Shown here piece after piece: positions 43,680 through 64,000 of a stretch of 64,000 nt of DNA (positions within the stretch are counted from its first letter, which is position 1; each line of letters starts with the position of its first letter). Under the pieces are notes generated by a model. It worked only from the letters and a program-made list of their open reading frames with translations, had not been told where the DNA came from and did not search any database. The stretch comes from Escherichia phage vB_EcoM_JNE01. Made by a program: the position numbers and the translations under genes. The stretch lies in sequence record OR670491; one strand, written 5' to 3'.

Positions 43680-43921
43680 TGCATTACAAACATCTTCCAG
43701 AAATGGAATTCAGACGCATGTCCAAGTCAATCAGACAAAAATACATTGCAACACAAAGGTACAACCTAAAGTACAAGCACAATATTCATGACGAACGATT
43801 GCTGTACGTAGTAGGGACAGAGTATCAGGATAGGGTTGTTAATTCATATTTGTACGCCCTAAAAGAGTACATCCTATATCTTTGTAATAACAACAATAAC
43901 AGTACAAAGGACATAAAATGA
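43679..43921 (+). CDS. small protein, LGTNYQE-motif family
   Basis: motif YVVGTEYQDRVVNSYL; ATG with GGAG RBS chosen (track start 43670). Confidence 0.55.
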   Translation: MHYKHLPEMEFRRMSKSIRQKYIATQRYNLKYKHNIHDERLLYVVGTEYQDRVVNSYLYALKEYILYLCNNNNNSTKDIK

Positions 43922-44238
43922 AATTTAATATCCTAAGAGTATCAAAAAGAGCGATTTATGCATATGAGTTTAATTATGATCAATTTGATGTAGATATCAT
44001 TTTGTACAAGAACAGCCAAGGTGAAATGCTTTTTAAGTACCAAAATAGTGAAGCAGATAATATTCCTTTACCGGATTTAACCAAAATGCAAGAGGATGAA
44101 TTCTTTCAGCAGAGCTTAGTATATGATATTGATTTTTATAGTATAGATATTCTTTTAGCTTTACAGAAAAAGATGCACGAAATCTTTAATGATTTAGTCC
44201 AGGGTGATGATAGCACAAGGTTCGTATTCTATGTTTAG
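43918..44238 (+). CDS. FQxS-motif family protein (first member of main array)
   Basis: motif QEDEFFQQSLVYDID; ATGA coupling. Confidence 0.55.
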   Translation: MKFNILRVSKRAIYAYEFNYDQFDVDIILYKNSQGEMLFKYQNSEADNIPLPDLTKMQEDEFFQQSLVYDIDFYSIDILLALQKKMHEIFNDLVQGDDSTRFVFYV

Positions 44239-44434
44239 AAACATAGATCCCAATCAGTACGCAACAATGTACAGAGATTATTGGATGCAAAGTTCCAGTA
44301 CCAAGTCCCTTGCGGAATTTCGTATGATATATTTTCTTGGTACAGAGAATCAAGAAGAAACGATGCTGGACTATATTGAAGTACTAAAGGTTGAAGTACA
44401 AGATGAATACATATTAGGGGTTATGGAGCAGTGA
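44231..44434 (+). CDS. small protein, LGTNYQE-motif family
   Basis: motif YFLGTENQEETMLDYI; internal ATG of track ORF 44204..44434. Confidence 0.5.
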   Translation: MFRNIDPNQYATMYRDYWMQSSSTKSLAEFRMIYFLGTENQEETMLDYIEVLKVEVQDEYILGVMEQ

Positions 44435-44925
44435 AATCGAGATTCGTTTCAGAGTTCAGTACAGACACGGTGTACGCTAAGGATTTAGTACAGTTATTAA
44501 TTTCATTGCTCAAGGCTAAGGATAATTCAGAAGTTCAAGATTTGTGTAGTTCTTGTATCCGATATGCAGGTGGTAATTTGTATATTAATATAGATGGATT
44601 AGATCGTCCTATATATAAACAATCAAAATTCATCCAAAGTTGGACATACATTGATTTTGATAGTACATATTCGGCGTACACAAAAAGAAGTACAAAAACC
44701 TTTTTTACAATCCAGGGTAAAACGTATAATTTATTAAAAGAGCCATTAACAGAAGAAATGTATTTCCAGATGCAATGCTTAGGATTAAGTACAGAAGCGT
44801 TAAATGCTTATGTGCTTATTGATGCTATGGATTATTTAGATTTAGATAAGTACGTTCCAGACGGATGGAGAATGTCTTTACCTTCGTTATTTGCAGTGTA
44901 CAATACAATACATGGGGAACCTTAA
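44431..44925 (+). CDS. FQxS-motif family protein
   Basis: GTG start after GGAG; motif TEEMYFQMQCLGLSTEALNAYVLIDAM. Confidence 0.55.
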   Translation: MKSRFVSEFSTDTVYAKDLVQLLISLLKAKDNSEVQDLCSSCIRYAGGNLYINIDGLDRPIYKQSKFIQSWTYIDFDSTYSAYTKRSTKTFFTIQGKTYNLLKEPLTEEMYFQMQCLGLSTEALNAYVLIDAMDYLDLDKYVPDGWRMSLPSLFAVYNTIHGEP

Positions 44926-45436
44926 AGTGAATTTTAATGTAATTGATGTTCCTGAATTAGCAAAGAAGATTCAAACAATCCTGTACATAGGTAGTTCAAT
45001 ACGAAGTACAGGTGATTTCATCAGGACAGATAAAGTAAGAATGCAAGGTATGCGTTCATCATATGATGTTAAAGGTATGTGTACATTTGATATGGTCTAT
45101 ACAAAATACGGAAAGGAAAAGAATGCAGTATGTTTATTATCGTTTCCACCGAACCCTATAGCACCGAGAAATCCTAACAATACATTATGGTACGAGCAAG
45201 GTGCAGATACAGTAGAGTTCAAGGGTGTATTTTATGATGTAGAAGATATTCCAGCAACAGAAGAAGGAGCATTCCAGTACAGCTTATTATATCCAGATGA
45301 TGTAATATTTTATAAGAAGTTATTTTGGGAGTTAAACAATTTACCTCATTACACCCCTAATTTTTCAATAGATCTGGAGTGCATTGATACCGTATACGAA
45401 AGTTTAATGGAGTTCATTAGTTATGAAGTACAGTAA
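44912..45436 (+). CDS. FQxS-motif family protein
   Basis: motif TEEGAFQYSLLYPDD; internal ATG of track ORF 44891..45436. Confidence 0.5.
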   Translation: MGNLKVNFNVIDVPELAKKIQTILYIGSSIRSTGDFIRTDKVRMQGMRSSYDVKGMCTFDMVYTKYGKEKNAVCLLSFPPNPIAPRNPNNTLWYEQGADTVEFKGVFYDVEDIPATEEGAFQYSLLYPDDVIFYKKLFWELNNLPHYTPNFSIDLECIDTVYESLMEFISYEVQ

Positions 45437-46004
45437 CCCAGAAGAGACAGTATTTGAGTACACATATGAAAATGCTGTAGAGCTTTGTACAAAATTAAAA
45501 GAAGTCCTTCAAATTTACAATTCCATTGTAAATGACCCAAAGAATAAAGATAAAAATGTAATCCAATTAAATGCATTTTGTTCCATAAACATAGCAAAAG
45601 ACCATTCAGAATTACAGGTCCGTAAAACACAAGATAACGAGGACAAATTCAGATTCATCAGGAATTATCCAATATCAGATGTATTATCATATCTTAGTTT
45701 TCCACCTGGTCCTTGTTTGAGTAAAGAAGATACGGATTCATTTTGGTATAATAGTACATTCCAGTACATGGGTATTAATAACAAGGGTTCAGATGCAACG
45801 GACAGGATTGAAGTGAATCAAAGTCCTAAAAGTGCAGAGGAATTCTTTCAGTACAGTACCCTTATGCATCCAAGAACAATTTTTTATTCATGCGTTTTAG
45901 ATGCTTTGAAGAGTTCAGGTTTAGATTTACCGCATTTACGTTTCAACCCACAGAGCATTCCTAGTGTGTGGGAAATGTTAAAGAACGAGCCGCCTGTGTC
46001 GTAA
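45423..46004 (+). CDS. FQxS-motif family protein
   Basis: motif SAEEFFQYSTLMHPR; followed by hairpin + T7 terminator. Confidence 0.55.
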   Translation: MKYSNPEETVFEYTYENAVELCTKLKEVLQIYNSIVNDPKNKDKNVIQLNAFCSINIAKDHSELQVRKTQDNEDKFRFIRNYPISDVLSYLSFPPGPCLSKEDTDSFWYNSTFQYMGINNKGSDATDRIEVNQSPKSAEEFFQYSTLMHPRTIFYSCVLDALKSSGLDLPHLRFNPQSIPSVWEMLKNEPPVS

Positions 46005-46023
46005 GATACGGGCTTTTTTTGTA

Positions 46024-46052
46024 TTGACAAAAGCAAAAGTACCAAGTACAAT
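46024..46052 (+). promoter_or_regulatory. internal array promoter (TTGACA-N17-TACAAT)
   Basis: ttgacaaaagcaaaagtaccaagtacaat after T-run terminator. Confidence 0.55.
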
Positions 46053-46080: not shown

Positions 46081-46647
46081 ATGCAACCAGTACAACCAGT
46101 ACAACCAGTACCTAAAGTGCCTAAAGTGCATCTAGTAGCCGATTTCGAAGTACCACAAACGTTCGAAGAGTGCAATGCGTACATCGACAAGGTGCTTTGT
46201 ATTTTCAAGGCATTCATTGAAGATGACATTCCATCCTTTGATTACGAACATCCCAGCCAAGGGTACGCAAACATGTACACAAGGAATAACATGAGTGGTA
46301 TTATTCCTCACATCACGAGTACAACGTTTTGGTACACAGATAGTTCAAAGAAATCAAAAGATTTCCTTGTACGCGATTTGAATTTAAACGAACCTTCATC
46401 AGTACCTATGCTGTTTGAGCCTATTCAATCCAAAGAAGAGTATTTTCAGTACAGCACCTTGTATACAGCATTTGAGTTATTTTGTATTCAGATGTACGCA
46501 AGAACAAATGCTTATATTAAAGATAATCCAATCAATTTCAAAAGTGCCAAGATTGTCCATCCTGTATTTGCTGATTTATATGATTCAGTGTATTCAGGTA
46601 AAAAGCCAAAGTACACCACAACAGCGTATAGAGCGTTTCGTCCTTAA
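46081..46647 (+). CDS. FQxS-motif family protein
   Basis: motif SKEEYFQYSTLYTAFE; N-terminal tandem repeat MQPVQPVQPVPKVPKV. Confidence 0.55.
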   Translation: MQPVQPVQPVPKVPKVHLVADFEVPQTFEECNAYIDKVLCIFKAFIEDDIPSFDYEHPSQGYANMYTRNNMSGIIPHITSTTFWYTDSSKKSKDFLVRDLNLNEPSSVPMLFEPIQSKEEYFQYSTLYTAFELFCIQMYARTNAYIKDNPINFKSAKIVHPVFADLYDSVYSGKKPKYTTTAYRAFRP

Positions 46648-46656
46648 GGAGCTATA

Positions 46657-47268: not shown

Positions 47269-47501
47269 TGATTTTATTCAATACAGGTCCGTGTTCCTTA
47301 GAAGTGATGTTTTCAAGAAATCGTTTATGGAATCAAAAATTCAGGGACGATACGTTGTTTCACAGGATGGTACAAACCTTCGAAAACGAGAAAGAAGAAG
47401 AATACATACACAGAATCATGTACATAGCAGTCCTCAGTACACCTGAATATTACGAGCGTTTGAGAGCGTTCAATTCCACAATACCAAAGGAGCCTAAGTG
47501 A
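47268..47501 (+). CDS. small hypothetical protein
   Basis: ORF coupled to flanking genes; overlaps alternative-frame ORF 47123..47446, judged less likely. Confidence 0.4.
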   Translation: MILFNTGPCSLEVMFSRNRLWNQKFRDDTLFHRMVQTFENEKEEEYIHRIMYIAVLSTPEYYERLRAFNSTIPKEPK

Positions 47502-47899
47502 CAACCATGAAACCAGTACCGTTAAGATATCAATTTTGTGCTTACGCAGTGCAAATGTACAGTTCAGAAGGTATATGTCAATACGAGTTTGATATTGAGT
47601 CACAGGAGACGAATGAAGAGGTGTACACGGTACGTTACCTTTACGGGAAGTACACCTTCGCTATCAAAGACAAGCACAGAAACATATCCCCTGTTCCTAA
47701 TTTTGTACACGAACCGGAGTTGGAGTTCCAGTACAGCACCTTAAGAGATGACATTCCTGTGCACAAGAAGATGCAGGATGTGCTGATAAAGTTCGTAGAA
47801 TGTGTTATGGCGGTTGACAATTACCCGAATATCCTGTACATTACCTTTGATAGTTACGAAATCTTAGAAGATATGTTCGAGGGATGGGAATTATGTTAA
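47498..47899 (+). CDS. FQxS-motif family protein
   Basis: GTG start after AAGGAG; motif PELEFQYSTLRDD. Confidence 0.5.
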   Translation: MTTMKPVPLRYQFCAYAVQMYSSEGICQYEFDIESQETNEEVYTVRYLYGKYTFAIKDKHRNISPVPNFVHEPELEFQYSTLRDDIPVHKKMQDVLIKFVECVMAVDNYPNILYITFDSYEILEDMFEGWELC

Positions 47900-48486: not shown

Positions 48487-48690
48487 CATGAGGGGGCGGT
48501 TTTACAGGCCGATGTTTTAGGGGTCAAAAAAATTTCCGCTTTAACAAGGTGGAGATTATCTTTTATATATCCTGTTAGAATTGTGCATAAGCGTAGAAGG
48601 AATTTTCGAAAAAGAAAAAAAGACGCGACGCAGGCACGATTCGGGCTGGGAATATATTTCTTTATCTTGTATTTTAATTTGGAGTTCATT

Positions 48691-49035
48691 ATGGATTTTG
48701 ATTATTCGATTTACAGTATAAAGTACCATGATTCTTTTGAATTGTATTGTAATCTTGTAAAGGGTGATAGCAAGCACGATTGTGAGCAATTCCTGCGATA
48801 CGATGGGAAACAATTTCATTTCTATGATTACTGTACTGGAGATAAAGAAGAAGTACCAGATTATACGGGGCTGGATGATGCAGAACTATTTCAGGCTAGA
48901 CTTGTATTTGATTCGAGATTAGTTTGCAGTATTGAAGAGATGATTCCTTTACAACAGGAATTAAAAGAACATTCCGAAAAGAAAGTCCAGTACGGATATG
49001 ATCATCGTTATTACTTTAATCTAGAGGATAAGTAA
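48691..49035 (+). CDS. FQxS-motif family protein, short A-type
   Basis: start MDFDYSIY after GGAG; motif DDAELFQARLVFD; track ORF begins upstream at 48583. Confidence 0.55.
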   Translation: MDFDYSIYSIKYHDSFELYCNLVKGDSKHDCEQFLRYDGKQFHFYDYCTGDKEEVPDYTGLDDAELFQARLVFDSRLVCSIEEMIPLQQELKEHSEKKVQYGYDHRYYFNLEDK

Positions 49036-49511
49036 TGAGTTTAGAAAGTGCACTGGAATTAGGTCGAAGGATAGTTCCTATTATTAATTTCTACCAAAAG
49101 AATTTATATAAGCTAGGATACTTCAATGATGAAATCCTGACTCCAGAAGAACTGGAGTTGGGATACATGTGTATGTTAGCCTTTGGTCAGTATCATACTA
49201 GTGGTGATTGTGATATGAACCTTAGTGGTGGATATCTTGATTTCGAAAGGAATAGTGCACTCCAATTCGTAGACAGAAATGGTTCAGTACAACGTATTGA
49301 ACCGGAAGAGTTTAAAGAATTTAGTACTATGACAGAGGATATGTATTTCCAGTTAAGTACTCTTTACAGTTCAGAAGCACTTGATGCAATGATACTTTTT
49401 GATTACTTATATGGCAGTGATGTTCCTAACTTCGTGTATCTAAGTCTTACTCGCTTGGATATTCTGGAAGAATTATATGAACAGGATTTATTAAAACAGG
49501 TACATATGTAA
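49035..49511 (+). CDS. FQxS-motif family protein, long B-type
   Basis: N-terminus MSLESALELG; motif TEDMYFQLSTLYSSEALDAMILFDYL. Confidence 0.6.
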   Translation: MSLESALELGRRIVPIINFYQKNLYKLGYFNDEILTPEELELGYMCMLAFGQYHTSGDCDMNLSGGYLDFERNSALQFVDRNGSVQRIEPEEFKEFSTMTEDMYFQLSTLYSSEALDAMILFDYLYGSDVPNFVYLSLTRLDILEELYEQDLLKQVHM

Positions 49512-49864
49512 TGGAATTTGAATTTGTAATATCGACACATAGTTTCAAGTTACAGCGTCAGTACTTTTGTAATTTAAACAAAGGTGATATGATACACGCA
49601 GGGAATGAATATCTTCATTACAGTAGTGGTAAATTTACATTTGTTAATTACGATAATTATCTTAATCCACATGAAGAGATGCTGGATTATACAGTACTAC
49701 CAGATGGTGAACTATTTCAGCAGTCCCTGGTATTTGATAAGAAGTACATTTGTTCTTTTGAGGATGTTTGTGCTTTGCAGAAGATCATAAAAGAATACGA
49801 CAAGAGTATTTCTGGGCGTGATATAATAATTAAGGAATATAAGTTCAACCTAGAGGATATGTAA
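49511..49864 (+). CDS. FQxS-motif family protein, short A-type
   Basis: motif PDGELFQQSLVFDKKY...LQKII. Confidence 0.6.
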   Translation: MEFEFVISTHSFKLQRQYFCNLNKGDMIHAGNEYLHYSSGKFTFVNYDNYLNPHEEMLDYTVLPDGELFQQSLVFDKKYICSFEDVCALQKIIKEYDKSISGRDIIIKEYKFNLEDM

Positions 49865-50301
49865 TGAGTTTAGAAAGAGCATTAGAAATTGCTGAGTTGA
49901 TTGATTTGTGCAGAACTAAAATCAAAACTGACTGCCTCAATGGATATCTATACCAGGAAGGCAATTCATATTTCCGAAGTTTATTTGATGAAAGTTCTGA
50001 TAGTATTGAAATGTATGATGATAAGTTAGATACCAGATATACTGTTGAATGCGATGTTAGTTTAGAAGATAATTACATATTCTTTTGTAAGAACTCTAGT
50101 ATTGCATTAAGTTATAATGAGCTTCTCCCTTATTCAGTACTTGAAGGTAATTGGGGTAGTCCAGAATATTACTTCCAGCAAAGTACTATCTACAGTGAAG
50201 AAGTTCTTGATAAACTAGTCATTTTGTGGTACTTTAATAACACTAGTCCCAATAACTTCTACATGGACTTGGACATATTAGATGTAATGAAAGGGGGATA
50301 A
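49864..50301 (+). CDS. FQxS-motif family protein, long B-type
   Basis: N-terminus MSLERALEIA; motif SPEYYFQQSTIYSEEVLDKLVILWYF. Confidence 0.6.
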   Translation: MSLERALEIAELIDLCRTKIKTDCLNGYLYQEGNSYFRSLFDESSDSIEMYDDKLDTRYTVECDVSLEDNYIFFCKNSSIALSYNELLPYSVLEGNWGSPEYYFQQSTIYSEEVLDKLVILWYFNNTSPNNFYMDLDILDVMKGG

Positions 50302-50303: not shown

Positions 50304-50783
50304 GTGTCATTTGAAAGTGCCTTTATGGAAGCCCAACGAATCCATGAGTACATGATTCGTATTATTAATGATGATAATCCAAATATAACAAAGTACTGTG
50401 ATGCATCATGGACTGAGTACTACCTATGTACACCAGCACAAAAAAATTACATGTTGGATTCAAATACTCGTATTCTACATTTATGCCCTGGTAGTAATCA
50501 CTTCTACTGTTGTCGTACAGCAGAGCACAGTACTATGGAGTTCAGTAGGAGTAGTCCTATTATTTTTTATAACTGGAATGTAGAGGGTTCTAACTATACT
50601 GACTGTACACACCAGATAGATGCAGAAGTACTGGATGAGCCGTGGGATTCTTCTGATTATTATTTTCAGATGAGCACTGTGTACGAAGAAGATGTACTTG
50701 ACACTTTAGTACTGATGTGGTACTTTAAGCACAGAACAGATTATCCAGATTTCTATCTGGAGTACTTCCACGACATAGGCTAA
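50304..50783 (+). CDS. FQxS-motif family protein, long B-type
   Basis: GTG start after AAAGGGGGA; N-terminus MSFESAFMEA; motif SSDYYFQMSTVYEEDVLDTLVLMWYF. Confidence 0.6.
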   Translation: MSFESAFMEAQRIHEYMIRIINDDNPNITKYCDASWTEYYLCTPAQKNYMLDSNTRILHLCPGSNHFYCCRTAEHSTMEFSRSSPIIFYNWNVEGSNYTDCTHQIDAEVLDEPWDSSDYYFQMSTVYEEDVLDTLVLMWYFKHRTDYPDFYLEYFHDIG

Positions 50784-50792: not shown

Positions 50793-51341
50793 ATGGATTA
50801 CACATTTAATGGTTTAGAGTACAGGCACTGTATTGCAATGGCTAAAGTACTGGAGTACGTTGTTACCAGATTGCAATGCAATGAATTTCTTAAGCGAAAT
50901 ATCTTATATCTAAATTCCGATGGTTACTTGTGCCATATTAATGATTTTGTTGACTTTGGTTGGGGCGTTCGTATTGACAAAGATACCATATCAAGAGCCG
51001 GATGCAGGGGTGCAGTTCTTACGCACTGTATTTGTTTTTCTCCTGATAGTAGATCTGTTATTATCAATCACGACAGTCAAAAATATTTTCTGGGTCTGGA
51101 CAATGGAGATTTGGAAGCGTGGTTCTTCCAGAACATTTTAGTACTTGAACCTATGAAAGTACTATATATGGTAGTGTTTAATTATTTGTACAACATTAAA
51201 TGCATAGATTCATTTGATATAGAAATGAGTCTTATGCGTATTATCAATCAAATACCTGAACTCCAGCGTATTACAGAAGAACCGTACTTCAACGATTTCA
51301 CAGAATTATATCGTATGCACAGCTTTGAAGGAGATGAATAA
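50793..51341 (+). CDS. FQxS-motif family protein (divergent)
   Basis: motif GDLEAWFFQNILVLEP; AAGAGGA RBS. Confidence 0.5.
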   Translation: MDYTFNGLEYRHCIAMAKVLEYVVTRLQCNEFLKRNILYLNSDGYLCHINDFVDFGWGVRIDKDTISRAGCRGAVLTHCICFSPDSRSVIINHDSQKYFLGLDNGDLEAWFFQNILVLEPMKVLYMVVFNYLYNIKCIDSFDIEMSLMRIINQIPELQRITEEPYFNDFTELYRMHSFEGDE

Positions 51342-51823
51342 TGTCATTTAAAGGAGCACTTGAAAAAGCTAATACTATTTTCGAGTACTATAAACTATTT
51401 CGTAATGGTGACTTGGATGATCTTTTTCAATGCAGCGATTTTTCTAATTCATACTTTCATACCAATAGTGATGGTAAGACATGGATAGTATACAGTACTA
51501 GTGGATCACGTGAAACTATTGAGTACTGCTGCAATCCAGACAGGGATTATATCTCGTACTGTCATAATTCTGAATATATTAATCTTGAGTTATGGACACA
51601 TGATGACAGTACTTACATGAAGACAACTGTTGATGGTGATGAGTTAAATGCCATGTACCAAGATTGGTTATCAGAAGATTATTACTTCCAGCAAAGTACT
51701 TTGCACAAGGAAATGTATCTTGATGCTATGGTAGTTCTTTCTTATCTTCGTTCTAAGAATTTAAGTCCTTTTTATTTGAATTTAGGTTATCTTGAAGAAA
51801 TCAAGAAGTCAATGCAAGGGTAA
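51341..51823 (+). CDS. FQxS-motif family protein, long B-type
   Basis: N-terminus MSFKGALEKA; motif SEDYYFQQSTLHKEMYLDAMVVLSYL. Confidence 0.6.
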   Translation: MSFKGALEKANTIFEYYKLFRNGDLDDLFQCSDFSNSYFHTNSDGKTWIVYSTSGSRETIEYCCNPDRDYISYCHNSEYINLELWTHDDSTYMKTTVDGDELNAMYQDWLSEDYYFQQSTLHKEMYLDAMVVLSYLRSKNLSPFYLNLGYLEEIKKSMQG

Positions 51824-52883: not shown

Positions 52884-52885
52884 GA

Positions 52886-52913
52886 TTGACACTTGGGAGT
52901 TTTGTGCTATAAT
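52886..52913 (+). promoter_or_regulatory. internal array promoter (TTGACA-N16-TATAAT)
   Basis: ttgacacttgggagttttgtgctataat. Confidence 0.55.
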
Positions 52914-52929
52914 ATTTTTAGAGGTACTT

Positions 52930-55513: not shown

Positions 55514-55882
55514 ATGAAACAGGTATTTCGTTATACGTATTACACTACAAAAAAGCAATTGGTTTCTTTATTTGGTTTCAAGACTTTGAAGACAAATGCA
55601 TATCAAAGGGTATTCATTGGCATTGATGATAATGGTTTCTTTCAATTACTGTCCAATGAAAGTGATAAGTCCTATACTATCCCTGACACTACTGTACTGG
55701 GAGAAGGTGAATTATTCCAGTTGAGTACTGTATGGGATGATTCAGAATATGCATGTAATTTTGAGAATTTTGTTCAGTACCAGAAAATATTACGAACTGA
55801 TTTTGAGAACTACCCAGTGAAAGTATTAAGTACTGGAAACGAACAATACAGACAAAAAGTGGTTGAACTTGATGCGTATTGA
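55514..55882 (+). CDS. FQxS-motif family protein, short A-type
   Basis: motif GEGELFQLSTVWDDSE...YQKIL. Confidence 0.55.
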   Translation: MKQVFRYTYYTTKKQLVSLFGFKTLKTNAYQRVFIGIDDNGFFQLLSNESDKSYTIPDTTVLGEGELFQLSTVWDDSEYACNFENFVQYQKILRTDFENYPVKVLSTGNEQYRQKVVELDAY

Positions 55883-56405
55883 AACAATAAGAACACACAG
55901 TGCAGAAACATTCTTTGATATTTGGCTTGTCCAGGAGCTAATGACTATTGGTTCTATTCCTACGAAATTATTAAATTACACACATAACAATAGTAATTCT
56001 GTACCACACCAATCAATTACCGATAGTAGTGGTGTGGTGTACATGCGTAGTAGTACTAATATTAATAATATAAAAAGTGCATACAATAATTCATGTGGCT
56101 TCTTTACTTATAAATCCGATACTCACCCATCATTCAGTACTATATTACAGGGGAATGTAATTTATCTTGACATGTTGAAACCACAAGAGTATACTGACGA
56201 TGTAATTAATGAAATTAGTACTGCAACAGATCCGAATCTGGTAATTGCTTCTATGGTATTCTCTTACATGAGATACAGTGCTATGCCGTGTACGTGGGCT
56301 TCAGCACCTGATCTCAGGAGATATTTAAATTCACTCCTAGGCACAAACTTCAGAGAACATTTAAATGCACGACGATTTATACAAAATAAACTACAGATTG
56401 AGTAG
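55872..56405 (+). CDS. hypothetical protein with C-terminal LGTNFRE motif
   Basis: C-terminal YLNSLLGTNFREHLNARRFI resembles LGTNYQE family; ATG chosen over TTG 55863. Confidence 0.45.
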   Translation: MRIETIRTHSAETFFDIWLVQELMTIGSIPTKLLNYTHNNSNSVPHQSITDSSGVVYMRSSTNINNIKSAYNNSCGFFTYKSDTHPSFSTILQGNVIYLDMLKPQEYTDDVINEISTATDPNLVIASMVFSYMRYSAMPCTWASAPDLRRYLNSLLGTNFREHLNARRFIQNKLQIE

Positions 56406-56718
56406 AAAAGAACTTATACTCAGGATTGGTTATGATGCACGTAAAAAATGTCACAATAATATCATGTACAACAGTACTGAACGTTTTCTTTTTTGTGTTG
56501 GATTTACAAGGTACTTCATTGATGACTTTACGGAGTTAGGTGAAGGGGAACTATTCCAGAACATGTGTGTTCTTCCTGATTACATTAATGTAGATATATA
56601 TGACTTAGTAAAGTATCAGAAAGCATTAAAGTACTTATACAATAACTATCCATGTACACCAGATCCTAAAACTATAGGTTATGAGGTTTATCACTTACCA
56701 GGAAATCTAATATGTTAG
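56365..56718 (+). CDS. FQxS-motif family protein, short A-type (paralogue of 55514..55882)
   Basis: motif LGEGELFQNMCVLPD...YQKAL; N-terminus aligns with 55514..55882. Confidence 0.5.
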   Translation: MHDDLYKINYRLSRKELILRIGYDARKKCHNNIMYNSTERFLFCVGFTRYFIDDFTELGEGELFQNMCVLPDYINVDIYDLVKYQKALKYLYNNYPCTPDPKTIGYEVYHLPGNLIC

Positions 56719-57296
56719 ATAAAGATAAAAAACTACTGTCCCCAAGAAATAATCATTTAAAATTAGATACATTAGAAGAAGCTATCCAATGCGGTAAACA
56801 GTTAGTTGAACTAATCAATGCAATTGAAAATGATGAAATACCACAGATTCAACGCTGTGAAGAAGAATTTGAGGGTGATGGCGATCCTTACTATTACAAT
56901 TTTAGAAAGGAAGATGCTAGAACATCTGAATACGAAAGTGCACTATATACAGTACAAGGTGATTACGACACAAGTGAATACGATCCATGTTTTCAGGGTG
57001 GATTCCTCAGTACTAGTTTAAAATCAGATATAATTGTAGTTGACTGGTATGTACACAGAGATGGTAGTTTAGAGGATAATAATGAACTTCGTCTCGATGC
57101 ATCAGGTATTGAATTTACTGAAGAGTCATTCTTCATGCACAGTACATTGTACTCTCAGTACTGCACTGGTGTTATGGTACTGGCGAAGTACTTAAACCAA
57201 GAACTCAAAAAACCTATCTATCTGGACTTAGATATGCTAGAACAAGCATACAAGTACCACCTTCAAGCCAAATCAAAAAAGGCATCTAAAAAATAG
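56712..57296 (+). CDS. FQxS-motif family protein (FM.S variant)
   Basis: motif TEESFFMHSTLYSQY. Confidence 0.5.
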   Translation: MLDKDKKLLSPRNNHLKLDTLEEAIQCGKQLVELINAIENDEIPQIQRCEEEFEGDGDPYYYNFRKEDARTSEYESALYTVQGDYDTSEYDPCFQGGFLSTSLKSDIIVVDWYVHRDGSLEDNNELRLDASGIEFTEESFFMHSTLYSQYCTGVMVLAKYLNQELKKPIYLDLDMLEQAYKYHLQAKSKKASKK

Positions 57297-57326
57297 TTGA
57301 CCTTCCTCCTTCTCTTGTGATATAAT
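57297..57326 (+). promoter_or_regulatory. internal array promoter (TTGACC-N18-TATAAT)
   Basis: ttgaccttcctccttctcttgtgatataat. Confidence 0.45.
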
Positions 57327-57360: not shown

Positions 57361-57834
57361 ATGAGCACTCATTTTCTTTGCACTTATCAATCAGCATTTG
57401 CTTTAGCTCAAAAAATCGAATTCCTTTACCATACATTCATTTCCTTCGAGGATGATGAACACATCCAAGTAGGTTCAGAAAGACTTGATTTCAAGGAAAG
57501 TCATAACCAAATTATATATAAAAAATGTTTGTTATTCAGTGTAAATGAAAATTCAGTGAATATCAGGACAAATATAGACCCTTATGTTTGTTATTCCCCA
57601 ACAATAAAGAGATATAAATTATCTACTGCAAGGGGTTATTCAAATGATTATGAAGCTGTTGACATTTTCAGTGAAGAAGATTACTTCATGAATTTGTGTT
57701 TGTTCCCTGAACTGGACGTATATAATCTTACTATCATTTCATACTTCAAGTTAAAGGGCATGGGTTCATTCTATATGGATCTGGATTGCGTTAATGAATT
57801 GTATGAGCATTTTTCTGGAGTACATAATGTATAA
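57361..57834 (+). CDS. FQxS-motif family protein (variant)
   Basis: motif SEEDYFMNLCLFPELD. Confidence 0.5.
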   Translation: MSTHFLCTYQSAFALAQKIEFLYHTFISFEDDEHIQVGSERLDFKESHNQIIYKKCLLFSVNENSVNIRTNIDPYVCYSPTIKRYKLSTARGYSNDYEAVDIFSEEDYFMNLCLFPELDVYNLTIISYFKLKGMGSFYMDLDCVNELYEHFSGVHNV

Positions 57835-58315
57835 GAATGTAATGATGACCGACTACGATTCAGTACTGAAATTTGCAGAAATCGTAACCAAAATACACTT
57901 TGAAGCTTACACTGATAATCCATTCGGTGGTTTATTTTATAAGAAATTCGACTCATACGAACGACCAATCCTCGCTGATCTAAATTATGTAAATGATGAG
58001 AATGCAATGGAACGATATTGTGAGTACTTCAAAGATAGTGATTTCAGTTTAAAAAGTGCATATATGTCATACGCACCTGGAACTGATATATCCATTAATG
58101 ATGGCTATGATAAAGTCCTATACAAATCTGAAGATTTACCAAAGGATTATAGTGAGGATTCATATTTTCAGTACTTATGTATACATGATATCAATACTGT
58201 GAATGTATTATTCTTCTATACTATTCTTCGTAAGAAATATCAGTTGACTAAATGTTTCTTTTTGGATTTTGAATTAATGTCCGATGCAGTACTGGAGTAT
58301 CTCAATGCCGATTGA
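57827..58315 (+). CDS. FQxS-motif family protein
   Basis: motif SEDSYFQYLCIHDINTVNVLFFYTIL; ATG after GGAG chosen (track start 57794; 57842 also possible). Confidence 0.5.
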   Translation: MYKNVMMTDYDSVLKFAEIVTKIHFEAYTDNPFGGLFYKKFDSYERPILADLNYVNDENAMERYCEYFKDSDFSLKSAYMSYAPGTDISINDGYDKVLYKSEDLPKDYSEDSYFQYLCIHDINTVNVLFFYTILRKKYQLTKCFFLDFELMSDAVLEYLNAD

Positions 58316-58646
58316 AATCGAGTTCATGGTTGATTCGGATTATGATTGTTTTATTATCCAGACTAAGTACAAAGATGACTTGTACTTAGTTTATATTCAC
58401 GATAATTCACAGTTCTATATGCATAGAAAAGTATCCAAAACATACACACAAGAAAAGAAAATCAAAAACTATACCAAACTAAGTACAGAAGAACTATTCC
58501 AAATGAGTTGTTCTGACGACTATGATGTGCATTTGATAAAAGAATTACAATTACCGCTTCTTAAATTCCAAAAAGAATGTAATCCTGTATTTGCAAAGCA
58601 CTTTGGTATCCCGTGGGATTATACAACATTTATGTACGAAGGATAA
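58305..58646 (+). CDS. FQxS-motif family protein, short A-type
   Basis: motif STEELFQMSCSDDYD; ATG after GGAG chosen (track start 58284). Confidence 0.5.
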   Translation: MPIEIEFMVDSDYDCFIIQTKYKDDLYLVYIHDNSQFYMHRKVSKTYTQEKKIKNYTKLSTEELFQMSCSDDYDVHLIKELQLPLLKFQKECNPVFAKHFGIPWDYTTFMYEG

Positions 58647-58649: not shown

Positions 58650-59045
58650 ATGAAAACAATGCATGTAATTTTACGTGTTGAAACTGCTTTACGTGTTGAT
58701 ACTTCTCTTAAATATGCCAATAATTCATATGATTCAGTAGTATATGAACGTTGGGTTAAGCTTGACAAGACGAACACTTTACGCTATATTTCTAATACAA
58801 ATAAATTCGATGTGAACTCCGAGAACGTTCCTAGGCTCGCTCACATGAGTTCTGAAGAGGTATTTCAGTACTCCTTAGTGCACAAGCATAGTGCTGATTT
58901 GAAGGTTCTGAAGGCCGTTCAGGAGGCTCTATTGGAGAATAACAGGACTCGTTACGTTACAATTGAGGTGGATGCACCGGATTATATGTTAGATGATGAC
59001 GAATTCTATGAGAAACATTTCCCTAAGAAACAATGGAGGGATTAA
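58650..59045 (+). CDS. FQxS-motif family protein
   Basis: motif SSEEVFQYSLVHKHS. Confidence 0.55.
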   Translation: MKTMHVILRVETALRVDTSLKYANNSYDSVVYERWVKLDKTNTLRYISNTNKFDVNSENVPRLAHMSSEEVFQYSLVHKHSADLKVLKAVQEALLENNRTRYVTIEVDAPDYMLDDDEFYEKHFPKKQWRD

Positions 59046-59513
59046 ATGCGAAAGTACAATGATGCTATGCGTTTCGCACGTGATAGTCTAAATGCACTCA
59101 CGTACCTTGTACTGAACGAAGATAAACTACCAAAAGAGTTTGACGTTCGTTATCCAGCCCGTAACGTTATGGTTACATGGCACGGTGCTTATAGTGTTAG
59201 TGTTTCGTCGGCAGGAGATCCATCACCTTATGTAGCTTCCATATTTGAAAAAGCCAGAACAAACTATGTGTACTTCGCTAAGAACACTAATACTGTTAAT
59301 TTCATCGCTAAAGACCGTAACTTGTGCAAGATGCAAGTACTGACAGAATTAAGTCCAGAGAATTTCTTTCAACAGAGTCTTCTTTATCCAGAAGATGCAG
59401 TACTTGCATTGTTTATGATTTCGTACTATAATTTGAACAGTACTATCGGTTCGTTCTCCTACGAGGTTGCTGACATGAAGCACTTCATTAAAACACTGAA
59501 GGGATTAAAATGA
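59046..59513 (+). CDS. FQxS-motif family protein
   Basis: motif SPENFFQQSLLYPEDAVLALFMISYY. Confidence 0.55.
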   Translation: MRKYNDAMRFARDSLNALTYLVLNEDKLPKEFDVRYPARNVMVTWHGAYSVSVSSAGDPSPYVASIFEKARTNYVYFAKNTNTVNFIAKDRNLCKMQVLTELSPENFFQQSLLYPEDAVLALFMISYYNLNSTIGSFSYEVADMKHFIKTLKGLK

Positions 59514-60055
59514 ATATTGAAGGTATAGATAAAATTGTCCAAATGTACAAGTTCTTATTATATGCTCGTAAGAATATGGAAGCACATAAAATTTGGTTTG
59601 ATGCACCTGATGATGAATATATGTTGATTAGAAATATCGCTGCGGGTACTGATTTTTATGGAAAGGGTGATGGACTAATATTTACAATTCGCCCTGAAGT
59701 TCAGGGTGATCATAACCGACGAAACCCCAATAGTGCTTCACATTACAAGCACATACTACGCGATGATAATTTCTTCATTAGCTCAAGTGAAAGTGATTTA
59801 TGTGATGATATTTTCATTAGTTATTTGGATGAACCTGTTATAATCAAAATGCCAAGTACTGAAGAAGAGGAATTTCAGTTCTCATTAATTCATGATGACA
59901 AGACTATGTTTATATATTATCTACAGAAAGCATTGAAAGGTATTATACCAAATGATGTATGGGTTGGTGGTTATTATGATAGAATCATAAACTACGATTT
60001 CAGTACTGTACTAAGTCTCATTAACACTGATAAGATGAAATATGGAAAATATTAA
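59510..60055 (+). CDS. FQxS-motif family protein
   Basis: motif TEEEEFQFSLIHDDK; ATGA coupling. Confidence 0.55.
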   Translation: MNIEGIDKIVQMYKFLLYARKNMEAHKIWFDAPDDEYMLIRNIAAGTDFYGKGDGLIFTIRPEVQGDHNRRNPNSASHYKHILRDDNFFISSSESDLCDDIFISYLDEPVIIKMPSTEEEEFQFSLIHDDKTMFIYYLQKALKGIIPNDVWVGGYYDRIINYDFSTVLSLINTDKMKYGKY

Positions 60056-60560
60056 AACACCTAAGCATATTATTAAAGTACTTGAATTCATGTTAACTAA
60101 AGTACAAAAAACAATAGAGAATGGTATTAAAAAATCTATATACGTTAATGGAAAAGATTCTCTACTTATTATCCATCCTGATGGTCAATGCACTTTGCAG
60201 TACAATACTGACCGTAAAATCACTATGTTAAATGAAAACCTTCAGTACGTAAGTGATAGTGTTTCAAGGATTATCATCAGGGGTGATACATTCTTCCTAT
60301 CTTCACCGAACTCAATGAAGTTGTATCCAGTCAACGATGTTATTGAATATGAGGATGCAGAAAAATATGATTTGACTGGTTTCAAGACCGAAGAAGGTCG
60401 CTTCATGTTAAGTACACTTCTTGATCAAGATGCAATGAACATCCTGGAAATTGATGCTGCTATCGGTCACTTAATCCCAGCTAATCAATACATTAGCTTA
60501 AGAACCAATGCCATGTACAGCGAAGCAATGCGTGCTATAAGACGTGATTTCAACATATAA
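60042..60560 (+). CDS. FQxS-motif family protein (FM.S variant)
   Basis: motif TEEGRFMLSTLLDQDAMNILEIDAAI; followed by terminator. Confidence 0.5.
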   Translation: MENIKTPKHIIKVLEFMLTKVQKTIENGIKKSIYVNGKDSLLIIHPDGQCTLQYNTDRKITMLNENLQYVSDSVSRIIIRGDTFFLSSPNSMKLYPVNDVIEYEDAEKYDLTGFKTEEGRFMLSTLLDQDAMNILEIDAAIGHLIPANQYISLRTNAMYSEAMRAIRRDFNI

Positions 60561-60649: not shown

Positions 60650-61189
60650 ATGGAAAAAATACTCATAGTTCATGACATTATAAAAGAGATGGCAACATTA
60701 CATGAAAGCGATAAAGTTGTTTCTAATCCCACTTCAATAACAAACTGCTTTTTAATGAGAAAGATGCACTACGGTGTGAACTTACTACTCAAGGCAGAAT
60801 CGGCAACGTACTTCACCTTTTCAGTGTATAGTAGTTCATTCCAAATAGATGATAGTACTGAGACAAAAATCCTGATAGATGGCTCTAACAAATGGGTGTT
60901 TATTGAAAGTGCTGAAAACTGTATCCCGTGCTTAGAGGCTGACTACGCAGATATTAAACTTGATCTAATTGAAAGTACTGACATTGAGAGTACATACTTT
61001 CAGATGTGTACTTTACATGATACTTCTATTGTAGATGCATTAGTACTTGAATTCTTACTTCGTGATTGGATTAAGAATAGTTCACTAGGAAGATTCTACG
61101 TTGGTTATGTCAATAAAATGCGTGATTTAACTGTTCAAGAGTTGAAAGAACTTCTGGACGCATTAAGGAAATTAAATGCTGAATCGTGA
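60650..61189 (+). CDS. FQxS-motif family protein
   Basis: motif DIESTYFQMCTLHDTSIVDALVLEFLL. Confidence 0.55.
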   Translation: MEKILIVHDIIKEMATLHESDKVVSNPTSITNCFLMRKMHYGVNLLLKAESATYFTFSVYSSSFQIDDSTETKILIDGSNKWVFIESAENCIPCLEADYADIKLDLIESTDIESTYFQMCTLHDTSIVDALVLEFLLRDWIKNSSLGRFYVGYVNKMRDLTVQELKELLDALRKLNAES

Positions 61190-61745
61190 TATACTCTGTA
61201 AAATTAGTTCTGCACTTCATAAAGTTGGTACTAAGTACGATATCCCTGGTGAGAAAGATAAGTGGATTGATATTGAGGATGTGTACCGTATCGTAATCAG
61301 TCCTAGTACTGAATACACGTATAACATCTGTAGTATCAATACCATTAACTACAACCCAAGAATGGGTCTTCAACACATCATCATTGCATCCTATGTAGGT
61401 ACTAGCAGAGTTTATACTGATAACATTGGATACTATAGTCCGCATATGTTTTCTATACGTTGTGCAAGGGACAACCAAATAGCAGCGGTTGAATTGTATA
61501 ATGAGACTGAGTACGCGAATGAAGTGATGGATATCCCAGTTGATCTTCAAAACTTAAAAGAGCGAGAATCTTCATGGTTCCAGTACTCTTTACTTGACAA
61601 CTACAAGATTTATGATACTATGTGCTTAATGTACGATGTGAACAAGATTTTACCTAAAGGGGAAATCTTAATGTACGAGGCATTTGTTAATCTCAAAGAT
61701 GAAGAACTCCAAAAAATTTACGAGGAATTAATCAAACATGTCTAA
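61176..61745 (+). CDS. FQxS-motif family protein
   Basis: motif ERESSWFQYSLLDNYK. Confidence 0.55.
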   Translation: MLNRDILCKISSALHKVGTKYDIPGEKDKWIDIEDVYRIVISPSTEYTYNICSINTINYNPRMGLQHIIIASYVGTSRVYTDNIGYYSPHMFSIRCARDNQIAAVELYNETEYANEVMDIPVDLQNLKERESSWFQYSLLDNYKIYDTMCLMYDVNKILPKGEILMYEAFVNLKDEELQKIYEELIKHV

Positions 61746-62316
61746 CATCATTGATGCTATTCAAAATCCAAATCACAAAATTCTGTGCAATATCATTGCT
61801 GATATGAAGCAGCATTTGATTAAAATGAAAAACACAGATACACCTGTGAACTTCAACAAACAATTACAGCACGGGTTGAACTTGAGCTTAAAGTTGAAGC
61901 AGAAGATGACATATGATAATTACATCTTGAACGCAGGTGGTCCGCGTGCTATTGTATTTGTCAATAACGGTTTCAGTACTGATGCGGTGCATGATATCAA
62001 TGTTGACCATTACATCAATAATAGAAATTTCGTTGTTATTGATGCACCATGTGATAAAGTTGTACTTACTACGGATACAGGATACCGTAAAGTTAAAATT
62101 CTTCGCAGTACGGATGACGTACAAGGTAAAGTCTTTCAGATGATTACCGTTGAAGATACCGACAGTATTGATGCATTATTACTGGTATCAGCTTTACACG
62201 AACTAATTATTGGTAGTGCAATGAAATTGATTATTGATATTGATACCGTCAATAAATTATCAATTGACTCTCTACAGAAAGTACACGAAACTGTACAGGG
62301 ATTACTTAATGAATAA
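61738..62316 (+). CDS. FQxS-motif family protein
   Basis: motif VQGKVFQMITVEDTDSIDALLLVSAL. Confidence 0.5.
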   Translation: MSNIIDAIQNPNHKILCNIIADMKQHLIKMKNTDTPVNFNKQLQHGLNLSLKLKQKMTYDNYILNAGGPRAIVFVNNGFSTDAVHDINVDHYINNRNFVVIDAPCDKVVLTTDTGYRKVKILRSTDDVQGKVFQMITVEDTDSIDALLLVSALHELIIGSAMKLIIDIDTVNKLSIDSLQKVHETVQGLLNE

Positions 62317-62857
62317 TTTTCAAAATATGTACGACATGTGTAAGATTATGTCAAATTTCAGTACTAAGATTAAATCGGCTCCAGTAGCGGAAGTTCACAT
62401 GTCCGAACGCTACTACACGTTCCGAGTATCCAGTACTGGTGACAGTATTCGACTGTTCTTAAATGACCGACAGCAATTGTTTGATGTAGTCATTGTAGAC
62501 CATACTACAAAGGGAAAATATGCATACAATATGTATGCAAAAAATCGTTGGTTAGTAATTCGTAATACAATGCAACGATTACGTGCAGCTACAGATATAA
62601 ACAGTACTGGTGATGATTACGATATTACTAACATTTTAGATGAATCTGTTTTTAATTTTGAAATAGATTTATCTGTTGATGATCCATTCCTGCGTGACCT
62701 TTACAAATTACACGGGTGCGTTGTTCGTGGTACACAAGATATCAAAGCTGTGTCAATTGAGGTATCCAGAATTCATGAACACAATGTGAACCTGGAATCA
62801 TTGATTGATAAGATGAATACCAATTTCTTCTTTTGGAAGTGTAAGGATGAACTATGA
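62309..62857 (+). CDS. hypothetical protein (weak family resemblance)
   Basis: internal ATG MNNFQNMYD overlapping upstream stop; track ORF starts at 62234. Confidence 0.4.
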   Translation: MNNFQNMYDMCKIMSNFSTKIKSAPVAEVHMSERYYTFRVSSTGDSIRLFLNDRQQLFDVVIVDHTTKGKYAYNMYAKNRWLVIRNTMQRLRAATDINSTGDDYDITNILDESVFNFEIDLSVDDPFLRDLYKLHGCVVRGTQDIKAVSIEVSRIHEHNVNLESLIDKMNTNFFFWKCKDEL

Positions 62858-63306
62858 CACGCGATGAGTGTATCCTATTATGTAAAGTTGTAGAGAAGAT
62901 CTTAAGTGATCCTTCTCTTGAAAATAGTAAAGTACTGAAAAATAAAACACGCAGGTCGTGGACTGATATTGCACTTGTAAGTGATGATATCAATGTTGGA
63001 ACTTTGTGGCCTTCGAGAACATATACACTAACAAGTGCAATACACGAAGAAAGTGTAGATTATGTAGGTGAGAAAACTTTCATCTACGGTAGTACTACAC
63101 CAGTAATGCATATCATTGATTTAGTTGATATGGATGACTTTGATTCGTTATATCTTCAGTACTCTTCGACATATAATACTGAATTAATTTATCAATTGGT
63201 TCTTATTTCGAGGATTAGTTATTTGATTAAAAATAACAATGATTATTCTTCGCTTTCACTTACGTTCGAATTACTACCTTATGCAGAGGAATTCTTAAAT
63301 GAGTAA
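62854..63306 (+). CDS. FQxS-motif family protein (variant LQYS)
   Basis: motif FDSLYLQYSSTYNTELIYQLVLI; ATGA coupling. Confidence 0.5.
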   Translation: MTRDECILLCKVVEKILSDPSLENSKVLKNKTRRSWTDIALVSDDINVGTLWPSRTYTLTSAIHEESVDYVGEKTFIYGSTTPVMHIIDLVDMDDFDSLYLQYSSTYNTELIYQLVLISRISYLIKNNNDYSSLSLTFELLPYAEEFLNE

Positions 63307-63784
63307 TATCAGTGCACAAGATTACGTTAAGATTTACAATTTCATGAATAGCTTCTTTGGTCCTGAAACTAAAGAAGTACAACTAACTAAGAACTTACAG
63401 TTAGGTGTATACAGTAATACTTATGTAGGTATTAAGAATACATCAAGTACCACTGAATTTAATACAGATATGTTTCGTATTATCCGTAATACACATAATC
63501 GTGAAATTAGTACATTAACACCTAATACAATGATAGCTGAACCTCCGACGAAAAATATCAATGTTATCACATTCAATTCAGATAATGTCGTTGAGATTCC
63601 AGAATTTACTTCATTTGATGAATTACAGTTTCAGTTGAGTACTCTATATAAAAATGAAAGTATCCTGACATTCTTATCATATCTTAATAGTATTAATAAT
63701 AATTATGTGGTTTATTTTGGTTCAATCCAGTCTATTAGTATTACACAGGAATTAATTGATTACATTGATAGTCTGGAGGAATAA
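63299..63784 (+). CDS. FQxS-motif family protein
   Basis: motif SFDELQFQLSTLYKNESILTFLSYL. Confidence 0.55.
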   Translation: MSNISAQDYVKIYNFMNSFFGPETKEVQLTKNLQLGVYSNTYVGIKNTSSTTEFNTDMFRIIRNTHNREISTLTPNTMIAEPPTKNINVITFNSDNVVEIPEFTSFDELQFQLSTLYKNESILTFLSYLNSINNNYVVYFGSIQSISITQELIDYIDSLEE

Positions 63785-64000
63785 TGGAACTCAATTTCAG
63801 TACTTTACTAAAGTTCATCCATCCAGTACTTTGGGTACTAAAGAATAGAAAATCAGAACATGATACTGTTCAGTACAGTAATGATTACTACAGTATATTG
63901 TGCGGGGTTTATGCTGATGGTGGTTCCATTATTATGGAGTACAAAGAAGCTAGTGCAAGGGGAACCAATCTAAGAATCGAATTACGTCTACCACTGTACG
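63784..64000 (+). CDS. hypothetical protein, 3'-truncated by window end
   Basis: ORF MELNFSTLLKF... open to the end of the window; array continues beyond. Confidence 0.4.
   Translation, partial: MELNFSTLLKFIHPVLWVLKNRKSEHDTVQYSNDYYSILCGVYADGGSIIMEYKEASARGTNLRIELRLPLY

Follow-up and report, generated by a model that had tools for sequence, protein, structure and literature searches.

The last 20 kb of the window, a stretch of 64,000 nucleotides from Escherichia phage vB_EcoM_JNE01 (record OR670491), holds a family of small, uncharacterised jumbo-phage proteins in about 35 strongly diverged copies, arranged in tandem on the + strand between positions 43918 and 64000. The copies share a motif with the consensus [ST]-E-E-x-[YLF]-F-Q-x-S-[TL]-[VLI]-[YHF], and we refer to them as the FQ family. 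The family, new and uncharacterised, belongs to a known kind, the tandem multigene family of a large virus, and its membership, its predicted fold and the framework reading of its motif are well supported. We propose, with a probability of roughly 0.55, that the array supplies a diversified panel of early host-directed binders built on one scaffold, for host take-over or counter-defence; the early expression and the binder and counter-defence function in this proposal we infer, the function by analogy.

The window is AT-rich (G+C 32–40%), and the + strand of the array is densely packed with open reading frames (ORFs) of 105–200 amino acids (aa) carrying strings of the form acidic-x-F-Q-x-S-[TL]-[LV]-aromatic. 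A hidden Markov model (HMM) seeded with 25 motif-bearing ORFs and iterated over the window's 255 ORFs of 50 aa or longer converged on 34 members. In a leave-one-out test, where each member is scored by a model built from the other members, all of them were recognised with E-values from 1e-12 to 1e-2 over alignments of typically 80–160 residues, and a broader HMM, reaching beyond the window-only model, brought in 3 more weak members. Between 43918 and 64000 there are thus 33 strong and 2 weak members on the + strand, among which lie four non-members and a handful of small ORFs, and two further members lie elsewhere in the window (1221–1874 and 14733–15407). When the motif was searched as a regular expression in six frames, the array matches were confined to + strand coding frames, and 2 extra matches fell in the two outlying genes. 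The strict pattern FQ.S[TLC][LVIM] occurs in 20 of the 40 + strand ORFs that reach 100 aa, where 2000 residue shuffles give 0.04 (maximum 2), and in 0 of the 23 minus-strand ORFs.

The central claim of the original prediction, that about 35 tandem paralogues of a single family related at the protein level fill this region, is therefore borne out by the iterative and leave-one-out HMMs. Its statement that almost every ORF of the array carries the motif is true of the 33 + 2 members but not of the four non-member ORFs. The motif lies 39–71 residues from the C-terminus (median 52), close to the 40–60 residues anticipated. The remainder of the proteins had been described as poorly conserved, and the mean identity among members is indeed only 13%, but homology is detectable over the entire length; it is weak, with the N-terminal helix kept in the long class of members and aromatic positions kept in the β-strands. 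Members fall into two size classes, about 10–11 short ones (103–133 aa, with ELFQxSLV[FW]) and about 24–25 long ones (145–194 aa, with YFQxSTLY).

When 94 members taken from PBECO4, Klebsiella phage RaK2 and the present phage are aligned, the Phe of the motif is invariant (94/94) and the Gln is present in 91 sequences, the remaining 3 having Met. The first and second acidic positions are E or D in 79 and 76 sequences, the Ser is kept in 76, [TL] in 81 (T 43, L 38, beside C in 9) and [VLI] in 87, and the residue following the Gln varies (Y 27, L 16, Q 11, M 9). A second tier of conserved positions, aromatic and aliphatic, falls in helix 2 and the predicted strands. Among 146 database proteins of the family, FQ is found in 140 and FM in 4; within the window, three members carry Met in place of the Gln. 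The Phe is encoded by TTT and TTC equally (17 each) and the Ser by both AGY (17) and TCN (8), so that selection maintains the motif at the protein level; the codons for Leu, Val and Thr are freely variable.

The same codons bear on the idea, raised as a possible refutation in the original prediction, that the peptide motif is a by-product of a repeated DNA word or recombination site. Such a word does exist. The palindrome AGTACT occurs 307 times in the window against 21.5 expected (14-fold), CAGTAC 352 times where dinucleotide shuffles give 30, and CAGTACTG 61 times where 0.7 would be expected (for example at 18139, 19502, 22656, 29151, 30778 and 31066), with hairpins for example at 846, 4623 and 11039; AGTACT is found in all three reading frames, is denser in non-coding DNA (9.6 vs 3.7 per kb), and is enriched 9–12-fold in the Turkey5, PBECO4, phAPEC6 and RaK2 loci. 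GTAC is present in the 18-nt motif core of 18/34 window members, 14/36 in PBECO4 and 16/24 in RaK2, where about 5, 5 and 2 are expected, the motif Gln is CAG in 27–28 of 31–32 members (64:86 elsewhere), and a Tyr after it is always TAC (9–10 window members). However, the invariant Phe lies outside the word and shows no codon preference, the Ser is drawn from two codon families, DNA repeats at the motif are merely 60–85% identical with differing third positions, and about half of the members keep F-Q-x-S without any GTAC in the motif. S-T, Q-Y, K-Y and V-L dipeptides outside the motif also preferentially use codons that spell GTAC, throughout the window. Since this skew is window-wide and about half of the members lack the word, the AGTACT word shapes codon choice but does not create the motif. 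The genome-wide (A)GTAC codon-pair skew explains the CAG bias at least partly; CAG is still preferred about 18 to 4 where TAC does not come next, a part that the skew leaves unexplained. An origin of the motif in a DNA repeat is so improbable as to be close to excluded, and is the least credible of the readings that we weighed.

AlphaFold2 was run on one long and one short member with the paralogues as the alignment (33–35 sequences). The long-member model (49035..49511; predicted local distance difference test score (pLDDT) 79, predicted template-modelling score 0.73) has a helix at residues 3–23, a poorly predicted insert, strands at 67–71, 76–79 and 85–88, a helix at 101–108 (E-D-M-Y-F-Q-L-S), a helix at 113–126, a strand at 133–137 and a helix at 138–157. 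The short-member model (49511..49864; pLDDT 69) has the same core without the terminal helices. The family is thus predicted to form a compact single α/β domain in which a three-stranded β-meander is followed by the FQ helix, then by another helix of greater length and a β-strand, and to which long members would add an N-terminal and a C-terminal helix. In the models, [ST]-E-E provides the N-cap and acidic first turn of the motif helix, the aromatic residue and the Phe would form its hydrophobic face, and S-[TL]-[VLI]-aromatic makes the turn leading into helix 2. This helix is the segment of highest confidence in both models, with a block pLDDT of about 92 in the long member and about 96 in the short one (helix 65–73). 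Most likely, then, the FQ motif is a conserved core helix of a folded domain and not a loose docking or cleavage peptide. The Gln is replaced solely by its near-isostere Met in the 94-sequence alignment, which argues for packing rather than recognition, and we infer that Phe and Gln serve as a framework of the fold that is conserved while surfaces and loops diverge. The predicted fold matches nothing known, structural matches in BFVD being restricted to uncharacterised proteins from SP27, 121Q, RaK2 and, weakly, GAP32.

The original prediction had seen the motif as a short linear motif in otherwise poorly conserved proteins, a view which the whole-length homology and the well-ordered helix do not support: short linear motifs sit in disordered segments of non-homologous carriers, whereas this one is predicted to be helical with the top pLDDT and its carriers are homologous by the leave-one-out HMM. 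Two particular versions of that view had been suggested. The first was a protease site of the YFQ|S type, and E-x-x-Y-F-Q does superficially resemble the tobacco etch virus (TEV) site. Proteases of the TEV and 3C type, however, need a small S, G or A at P1′ after the Gln at P1; the residue in that position here is variable and large, the Gln itself gives way to Met in some members, and the site would lie in a helical, well-ordered segment of both models. Processing at the motif is also close to excluded.

The second was a sliding-clamp peptide of the QLSLF type, and it belongs to a wider possibility in which the FQ helix is a shared surface that docks all of the paralogues into one hub, a host or phage protein such as the sliding clamp, a protease, a chaperone or RNA polymerase, while the variable remainder recruits targets, making the array an adaptor library. 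The β-clamp-binding consensus is QL[SD]LF or QLxLxL, with Leu at position 4, and the Q-x-S-L-[LV]-aromatic variants of the family look like it, some members reading Q-L-S-L-L or Q-x-S-L-V-aromatic. Unlike clamp peptides, the FQ motif is internal and predicted to be helical; T is as frequent as L at position 4, occurring in about half of the members, position 2 is Y, L, Q or M and position 5 is V, L or I, and the invariant Phe and the acidic pair are foreign to clamp motifs. In favour of docking in general, Phe and Gln are near-invariant and [ST]-E-E and Ser conserved in proteins that have otherwise drifted to 13% mean identity, and by our helical wheel E(i) and Q(i+4) would share one face opposite the aromatic one. 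The RaK2 paper also reports no homologue of the T4 clamp gp45 (PMC3622015). The motif nevertheless lies within the best-folded region of the models, and the exclusive replacement of Gln by Met fits packing. We therefore regard a common docking surface as unlikely. A slightly more doubtful variant is that the helix acts as an F-box/PRANC-like module plugging about 40 paralogues into one host hub; if true, the array would be a phage-encoded adaptor library redirecting one hub to many host targets, with a fold not seen before.

Conservation of polar residues inside the motif might alternatively reflect an active or ligand-binding site (E-E...Q..S) in a set of small enzymes or ligand binders. A single phage with 35–41 paralogous enzymes of 105–200 aa is implausible, three window members have Met for the Gln, and neither profile nor structure searches found similarity to an enzyme family or fold. 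Such a role seems very unlikely.

The family is specific to RaK2-like jumbo phages, namely the Asteriusvirus group and Alcyoneusvirus. The window itself comes from a jumbo coliphage of this RaK2-like kind. Its segment 43918–64000 matches the 351-kb circular Escherichia phage Turkey5 with 96.7% identity over its full length, every Turkey5 gene under it being annotated as 'hypothetical protein', and it matches PBECO4, 121Q, phAPEC6 and other Asteriusvirus-type jumbo coliphages only in small patches at the DNA level. Syntenic arrays contain 38–41 members in PBECO4 and 37–38 in Turkey5, and Klebsiella phage RaK2, from another genus (Alcyoneusvirus), has at least 25–28 members with the same motif in one 40-kb locus. 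The array was expected to run past the window, and HMM matches in Turkey5 extend about 4.4 kb beyond the equivalent of the window end. With about 35 members here, about 38 in Turkey5 and 41 in the PBECO4 locus, the expansion is as large as had been claimed, and to our knowledge unusual for a phage. By tblastn with relaxed E-values the family was found in 44–45 of 50,697 phage records, all of them from jumbo phages of Escherichia, Salmonella or Klebsiella; BLAST reached neither GAP32 nor CBB, and GAP32 surfaced solely through the weak structural matches above.

When 1.84 billion representative proteins were searched exhaustively with a profile, just 142 relatives came back, all short (93–215 aa) single-domain proteins and hence without informative fusions; a word-seeded search of 5.8 billion proteins returned only 9 matches, without names or Pfam domains, and one distant database match was traced to the same jumbo-phage group. 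Pfam gave no match below E 0.006, only scattered sub-threshold ones, none common to more than two members, NCBIfam gave none, and the best match to a PDB sequence profile had an E-value of 0.21. In PHROGs the family is spread over at least 27 groups of 'unknown function'. One member matched phrog_13246 ('replisome organizer', E 0.008), which we take as chance, the other 34 being without it. Literature searches found no description of the family, its motif, size or fold. With no Pfam entry and a split over so many PHROGs, the unity of the family appears to have gone unrecognised so far.

Most window members have a collinear orthologue in PBECO4 with 30–58% identity, nearer than any paralogue within the window, and so most duplications are older than the split between this phage and PBECO4; RaK2 members have no one-to-one orthology to window members. 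Turkey5 carries an extra short member (…AAKLFQIHTIW…, Turkey5 locus coordinates 25468–25818) between the counterparts of 54918–55460 and 55514–55882, where the window has a 53-nt gap; a gene has thus been gained or lost between two phages of about 97% identity. Against Turkey5, the ratio of the proportions of non-synonymous and synonymous differences (pN/pS) is about 0.30 for the family (210 synonymous and 265 non-synonymous differences), so the ORFs are real, constrained genes; for 40 neighbouring non-family genes it is 0.155, so protein evolution in the family is about twice as rapid as in its surroundings.

Array genes overlap by 1–41 nt or lie less than 10 nt apart, a few larger gaps excepted. 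A long gene repeatedly follows a short one with a stop/start overlap or a start at most 4 bases from the stop, and a 50-nt repeat with 84% identity (49009–49058 vs 49838–49887) spans the short-gene stop and the next long-gene start (NLED[KM]-stop and MSLE[SR]AL), from which it follows that a short + long pair was duplicated as one unit. This recurring cassette would suit a self-assembly role, in which the FQ helix is a homo- or hetero-oligomer interface, for example between short and long partners, and the array encodes subunits of mixed complexes. Against it, about 10 short members stand beside about 25 long ones, and many long genes adjoin other long genes; we consider self-assembly distinctly unlikely, more so than a docking module.

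The products are acidic (median isoelectric point (pI) 4.9; 27/35 below 5.5), with a grand average of hydropathy about zero or negative in every member. The best sigma-70 consensus matches of the array lie in or beside its few gaps, and two come after terminator hairpins. In the related phage CBB, the corresponding region of short hypothetical ORFs behind RpoD-like promoters was proposed to be an early host-take-over region (PMC5259590). None of the products of the syntenic array in phAPEC6 (gp402c–gp466c) is among the 62 virion proteins identified by mass spectrometry (PMC7247149 Table 1), where substrates of a prohead protease would show, a further point against cleavage at the motif.

A rigid framework with diverging surfaces, the tandem layout, probable early promoters, acidic non-virion products and faster evolution lead us to favour the panel of host-directed binders. 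The FQ proteins would then form a family that arose by ancient tandem duplication, small, cytoplasmic, mostly acidic and absent from the virion; host RNA polymerase would probably transcribe the array shortly after infection, reading closely coupled operons from the consensus sigma-70 promoters, and the paralogues would each neutralise or redirect a host factor of their own, in host take-over or counter-defence. Several points weigh against this proposal. Selection on the family is purifying overall, and the array is stable and collinear across lineages, with no fast 'accordion'. Both structural models are based on shallow alignments, with pLDDT of 79 and 69. The motif keeps five polar positions ([ST], E, E, Q, S) where a framework alone would require fewer, and these could mark a shared binding or catalytic site. 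Promoter-like sites overall are not above shuffles (71 vs 96), their placement in gaps and not their number being what is suggestive. Literature searches found no transcriptome for these genera and no transcript, protein or phenotype data for members, and the proposed function is based on analogy with other viral multigene families.

The closest parallels are the multigene families of large DNA viruses, such as MGF110, MGF360 and MGF505 of African swine fever virus and the Bcl-2-like and ankyrin/PRANC families of poxviruses. The FQ array resembles them in having dozens of same-orientation tandem paralogues (33 + 2 on one strand in 20 kb) of very low identity on a conserved scaffold, in consisting of non-structural accessory genes, as the absence of the syntenic phAPEC6 genes from the virion proteome indicates, in differing in copy number among relatives (the extra Turkey5 member, 41 in PBECO4), and in its pN/pS of 0.30 vs 0.155. 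It differs in having bacterial hosts and a predicted fold that is unrelated and without known relatives, in being old and collinear rather than rapidly expanding, and in that an immune-evasion role could here be argued only by analogy.

Paralogy in this phage clade has been noted before: about 10% of RaK2 proteins are said to be paralogues (PMC3622015) and 22 paralogous ORFs are listed for CBB (PMC5259590). A search of both papers for paralogue and family terms found no mention of the FQ family, its motif or its size. Clade and type of region are the same, and the FQ family supplies a large share (at least 25–28 members in the one RaK2 locus). The esaG arrays, strings of non-identical immunity genes beside polymorphic toxins (PMC9484751), offer another comparison, as the FQ array would likewise be tandem, small, diverged and composed of single-domain cytoplasmic binders. 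Unlike them, it has no adjacent toxin gene and no similarity to SUKH, DUF600 or any other immunity Pfam family or fold, and its genes are phage-encoded and presumably early. An identity of the family with SUKH or other immunity proteins was accordingly rejected, there being no sequence or fold match.

The members are given here in their order along the + strand, with leave-one-out E-values in brackets unless stated otherwise. The first is a short member at 43918..44238 (106 aa, motif QEDEFFQQSLVY at 44089–44124, E 4.5e-8), whose PBECO4 orthologue is 50% identical. It is followed by long members at 44431..44925 (164 aa, TEEMYFQMQCLG, E 7e-9), 44891..45436 (TEEGAFQYSLLY, E 5.3e-11) and 45423..46004 (193 aa, SAEEFFQYSTLM, E 2.3e-11). 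The middle one has at most 181 aa as a maximal ORF from TTG; its real start is probably further downstream, and the Turkey5 annotation has a shorter coding sequence (CDS). A terminator hairpin with a T-run (45992–46013) and a putative promoter, TTGACA-17-TACAAT (46024–46052), precede the long member 46081..46647 (188 aa, SKEEYFQYSTLY, E 7.2e-7). The weak member 47498..47899 (133 aa, EPELEFQYSTLR) scores E 0.2 in the window-only HMM, improving to 1e-3 in the broader one.

The short member 48583..49035 (DDAELFQARLVF, E 6.7e-7) is 40% identical to 49511–49864 and likely starts at ATG 48691 (114 aa), judging from the ribosome-binding site (RBS) and the Turkey5 CDS. The two modelled proteins come next, the long member 49035..49511 (158 aa, TEDMYFQLSTLY, E 1.9e-12) and the short member 49511..49864 (117 aa, PDGELFQQSLVF, E 1.1e-8; PBECO4 orthologue 58% identical), and then the long member 49864..50301 (145 aa, SPEYYFQQSTIY, E 6.1e-12), whose junction with the preceding short gene is the duplicated one. 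Three more long members lie at 50304..50783 (159 aa, SSDYYFQMSTVY, E 1e-9), with a pN/pS of 1.6 against Turkey5 from small counts, at 50793..51341 (182 aa, LEAWFFQNILVL, E 1.6e-5), where DNA identity to Turkey5 is just 88%, and at 51341..51823 (160 aa, SEDYYFQQSTLH, E 1e-12). The short member 51827..52174 (115 aa, YEAFMFQESLVW) has E 4.7e-3, improving to 2.6e-8 with the broader HMM, and the member at 52178..52570 has 130 aa and a long-type N-terminal helix (TEEGFFQLSLLY, E 9.9e-11).

A perfect match to the sigma-70 promoter, TTGACA-16-TATAAT with TG (52886..52913, 12/12 matches), is followed by an RBS and ATG 52930, the likely start (103 aa, as per the Turkey5 CDS length) of the short member 52867..53241 (NEEELFQFSLVW, E 2.4e-7). 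Long members occupy 53242..53712 (156 aa, TEEGFFQLETMY, E 2.7e-5), 53684..54238 (184 aa, FEEQCFQLRCTD, E 9.7e-3; broader HMM 1.6e-8), 54431..54931 (166 aa, NADSYFQYSFVY, E 3.4e-7) and 54918..55460 (180 aa, DDAALFQYSTLY, E 1.7e-7), and short ones 55514..55882 (122 aa, GEGELFQLSTVW, E 4.4e-6) and 56365..56718 (117 aa, GEGELFQNMCVL, E 3e-5). In the next two long members, 56712..57296 (194 aa, TEESFFMHSTLY, E 2.1e-9) and 57361..57834 (157 aa, SEEDYFMNLCLF, E 1.1e-10), Met replaces the Gln, and the gap between them holds a candidate promoter, TTGACC-18-TATAAT with TG (57297..57326, 11/12 matches). A long member at 57794..58315 (173 aa, SEDSYFQYLCIH, E 5.4e-8) leads to short members at 58284..58646 (120 aa, STEELFQMSCSD, E 9e-6) and 58650..59045 (131 aa, SSEEVFQYSLVH, E 2.3e-8).

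The long member 59046..59513 (155 aa, SPENFFQQSLLY, E 2.5e-11) is one of just two basic members of the family (pI 8.9) and has a promoter-like AGTACTTGCA-N-TATAAT site inside it at 59399. It is followed by the long members 59510..60055 (181 aa, TEEEEFQFSLIH, E 1.1e-8) and 60042..60560 (172 aa, TEEGRFMLSTLL, E 7.1e-7), the latter with Met for the Gln. After a terminator hairpin (60559–60576) and a putative promoter, TTTACA-17-TATAAT with TG (60591–60619), come the long members 60650..61189 (179 aa, IESTYFQMCTLH, E 1.4e-7), 61176..61745 (189 aa, RESSWFQYSLLD, E 2e-4; broader HMM 1.1e-11) and 61738..62316 (192 aa, VQGKVFQMITVE, E 3.2e-6), the weak member 62854..63306 (150 aa, FDSLYLQYSSTY, with Leu for the Phe; E 2.3e-3, broader HMM 7.6e-4) and, last in the window, the long member 63299..63784 (161 aa, FDELQFQLSTLY, E 3.6e-8).

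The four non-members within the array (46657–47268, 52572–52883, 55863–56405 and 62234–62857) are recognised by no family HMM; two fall in other 'unknown' PHROGs (31297 and 11429) and two are without any match, and they may be unrelated insertions or members diverged past detection. A second family of about 65–88 aa (phrog_4148), whose C-terminal end reads [LV]-G-T-x-x-Q-E-x-x-I-x-x-Y-L-x-x-L, lies directly upstream of the FQ array (42439–43921) and also in two 192-nt 'gaps' of it (44239–44430 and 54239–54430).

Of the two outlying members, both on the + strand, 1221..1874 (217 aa, TDELMFQYSLLY, phrog_34359) has a leave-one-out E-value of 3.9e-4 and 6.8e-8 with the broader HMM, and in metagenome contigs the surroundings of its orthologue are the same; 14733..15407 (224 aa, SEDEMFQWSTII) is a weak member with a motif match, recognised by the broader HMM only (E 2.6e-3). 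The former adjoins nine tandem paralogues of 358–447 aa on the - strand (2114–13382) with RCC1-like β-propeller repeats (Pfam RCC1 / WD40_RLD, phrog_4219), which probably correspond to the virion 'DNA condensation' proteins gp003–010, gp549 and gp551 of phAPEC6. Scans of the whole window for tRNA, tmRNA and Rfam families found nothing.

The AGTACT word has a distribution of its own. In the small-ORF region 18000–38100, about 25 sigma-70-like promoters on the + strand contain it (for example at 18125, 19492, 20630, 21191, 22637, 29137, 30764 and 31056), 18 as AGTACTTGCA-N12-18-TATAAT and six as TTGACA-N6-10-CAGTACTG abutting the -10 box, and several of those inspected are followed by a leader hairpin, GGGRAA...TTCCC. 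The arrangement resembles an operator or a regulatory module that the early promoters share. Inside the FQ array, the bin 44000–48000 has 1 AGTACT site against 11–36 in each other 4-kb bin, and could be a segment of different history. Literature searches found no paper mentioning the word. Occurring about every 200 bp and within putative early promoters, it may indicate an undescribed DNA-level regulatory or recognition system in this clade.

In phages of about 350 kb the FQ family accounts for about 7% of the genes (41 HMM matches among 551 annotated features in PBECO4, about 38 of 584 in Turkey5), and its recognition unites dozens of 'hypothetical proteins' in each genome as a single object that can be tested. 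The Phe, the Gln and the EE pair are clear mutational handles, and the array is a natural deletion target. If the members are binders for counter-defence or host take-over, they would amount to a ready collection of inhibitors directed at E. coli and Klebsiella proteins, and the array would help to explain the large genomes of these phages.

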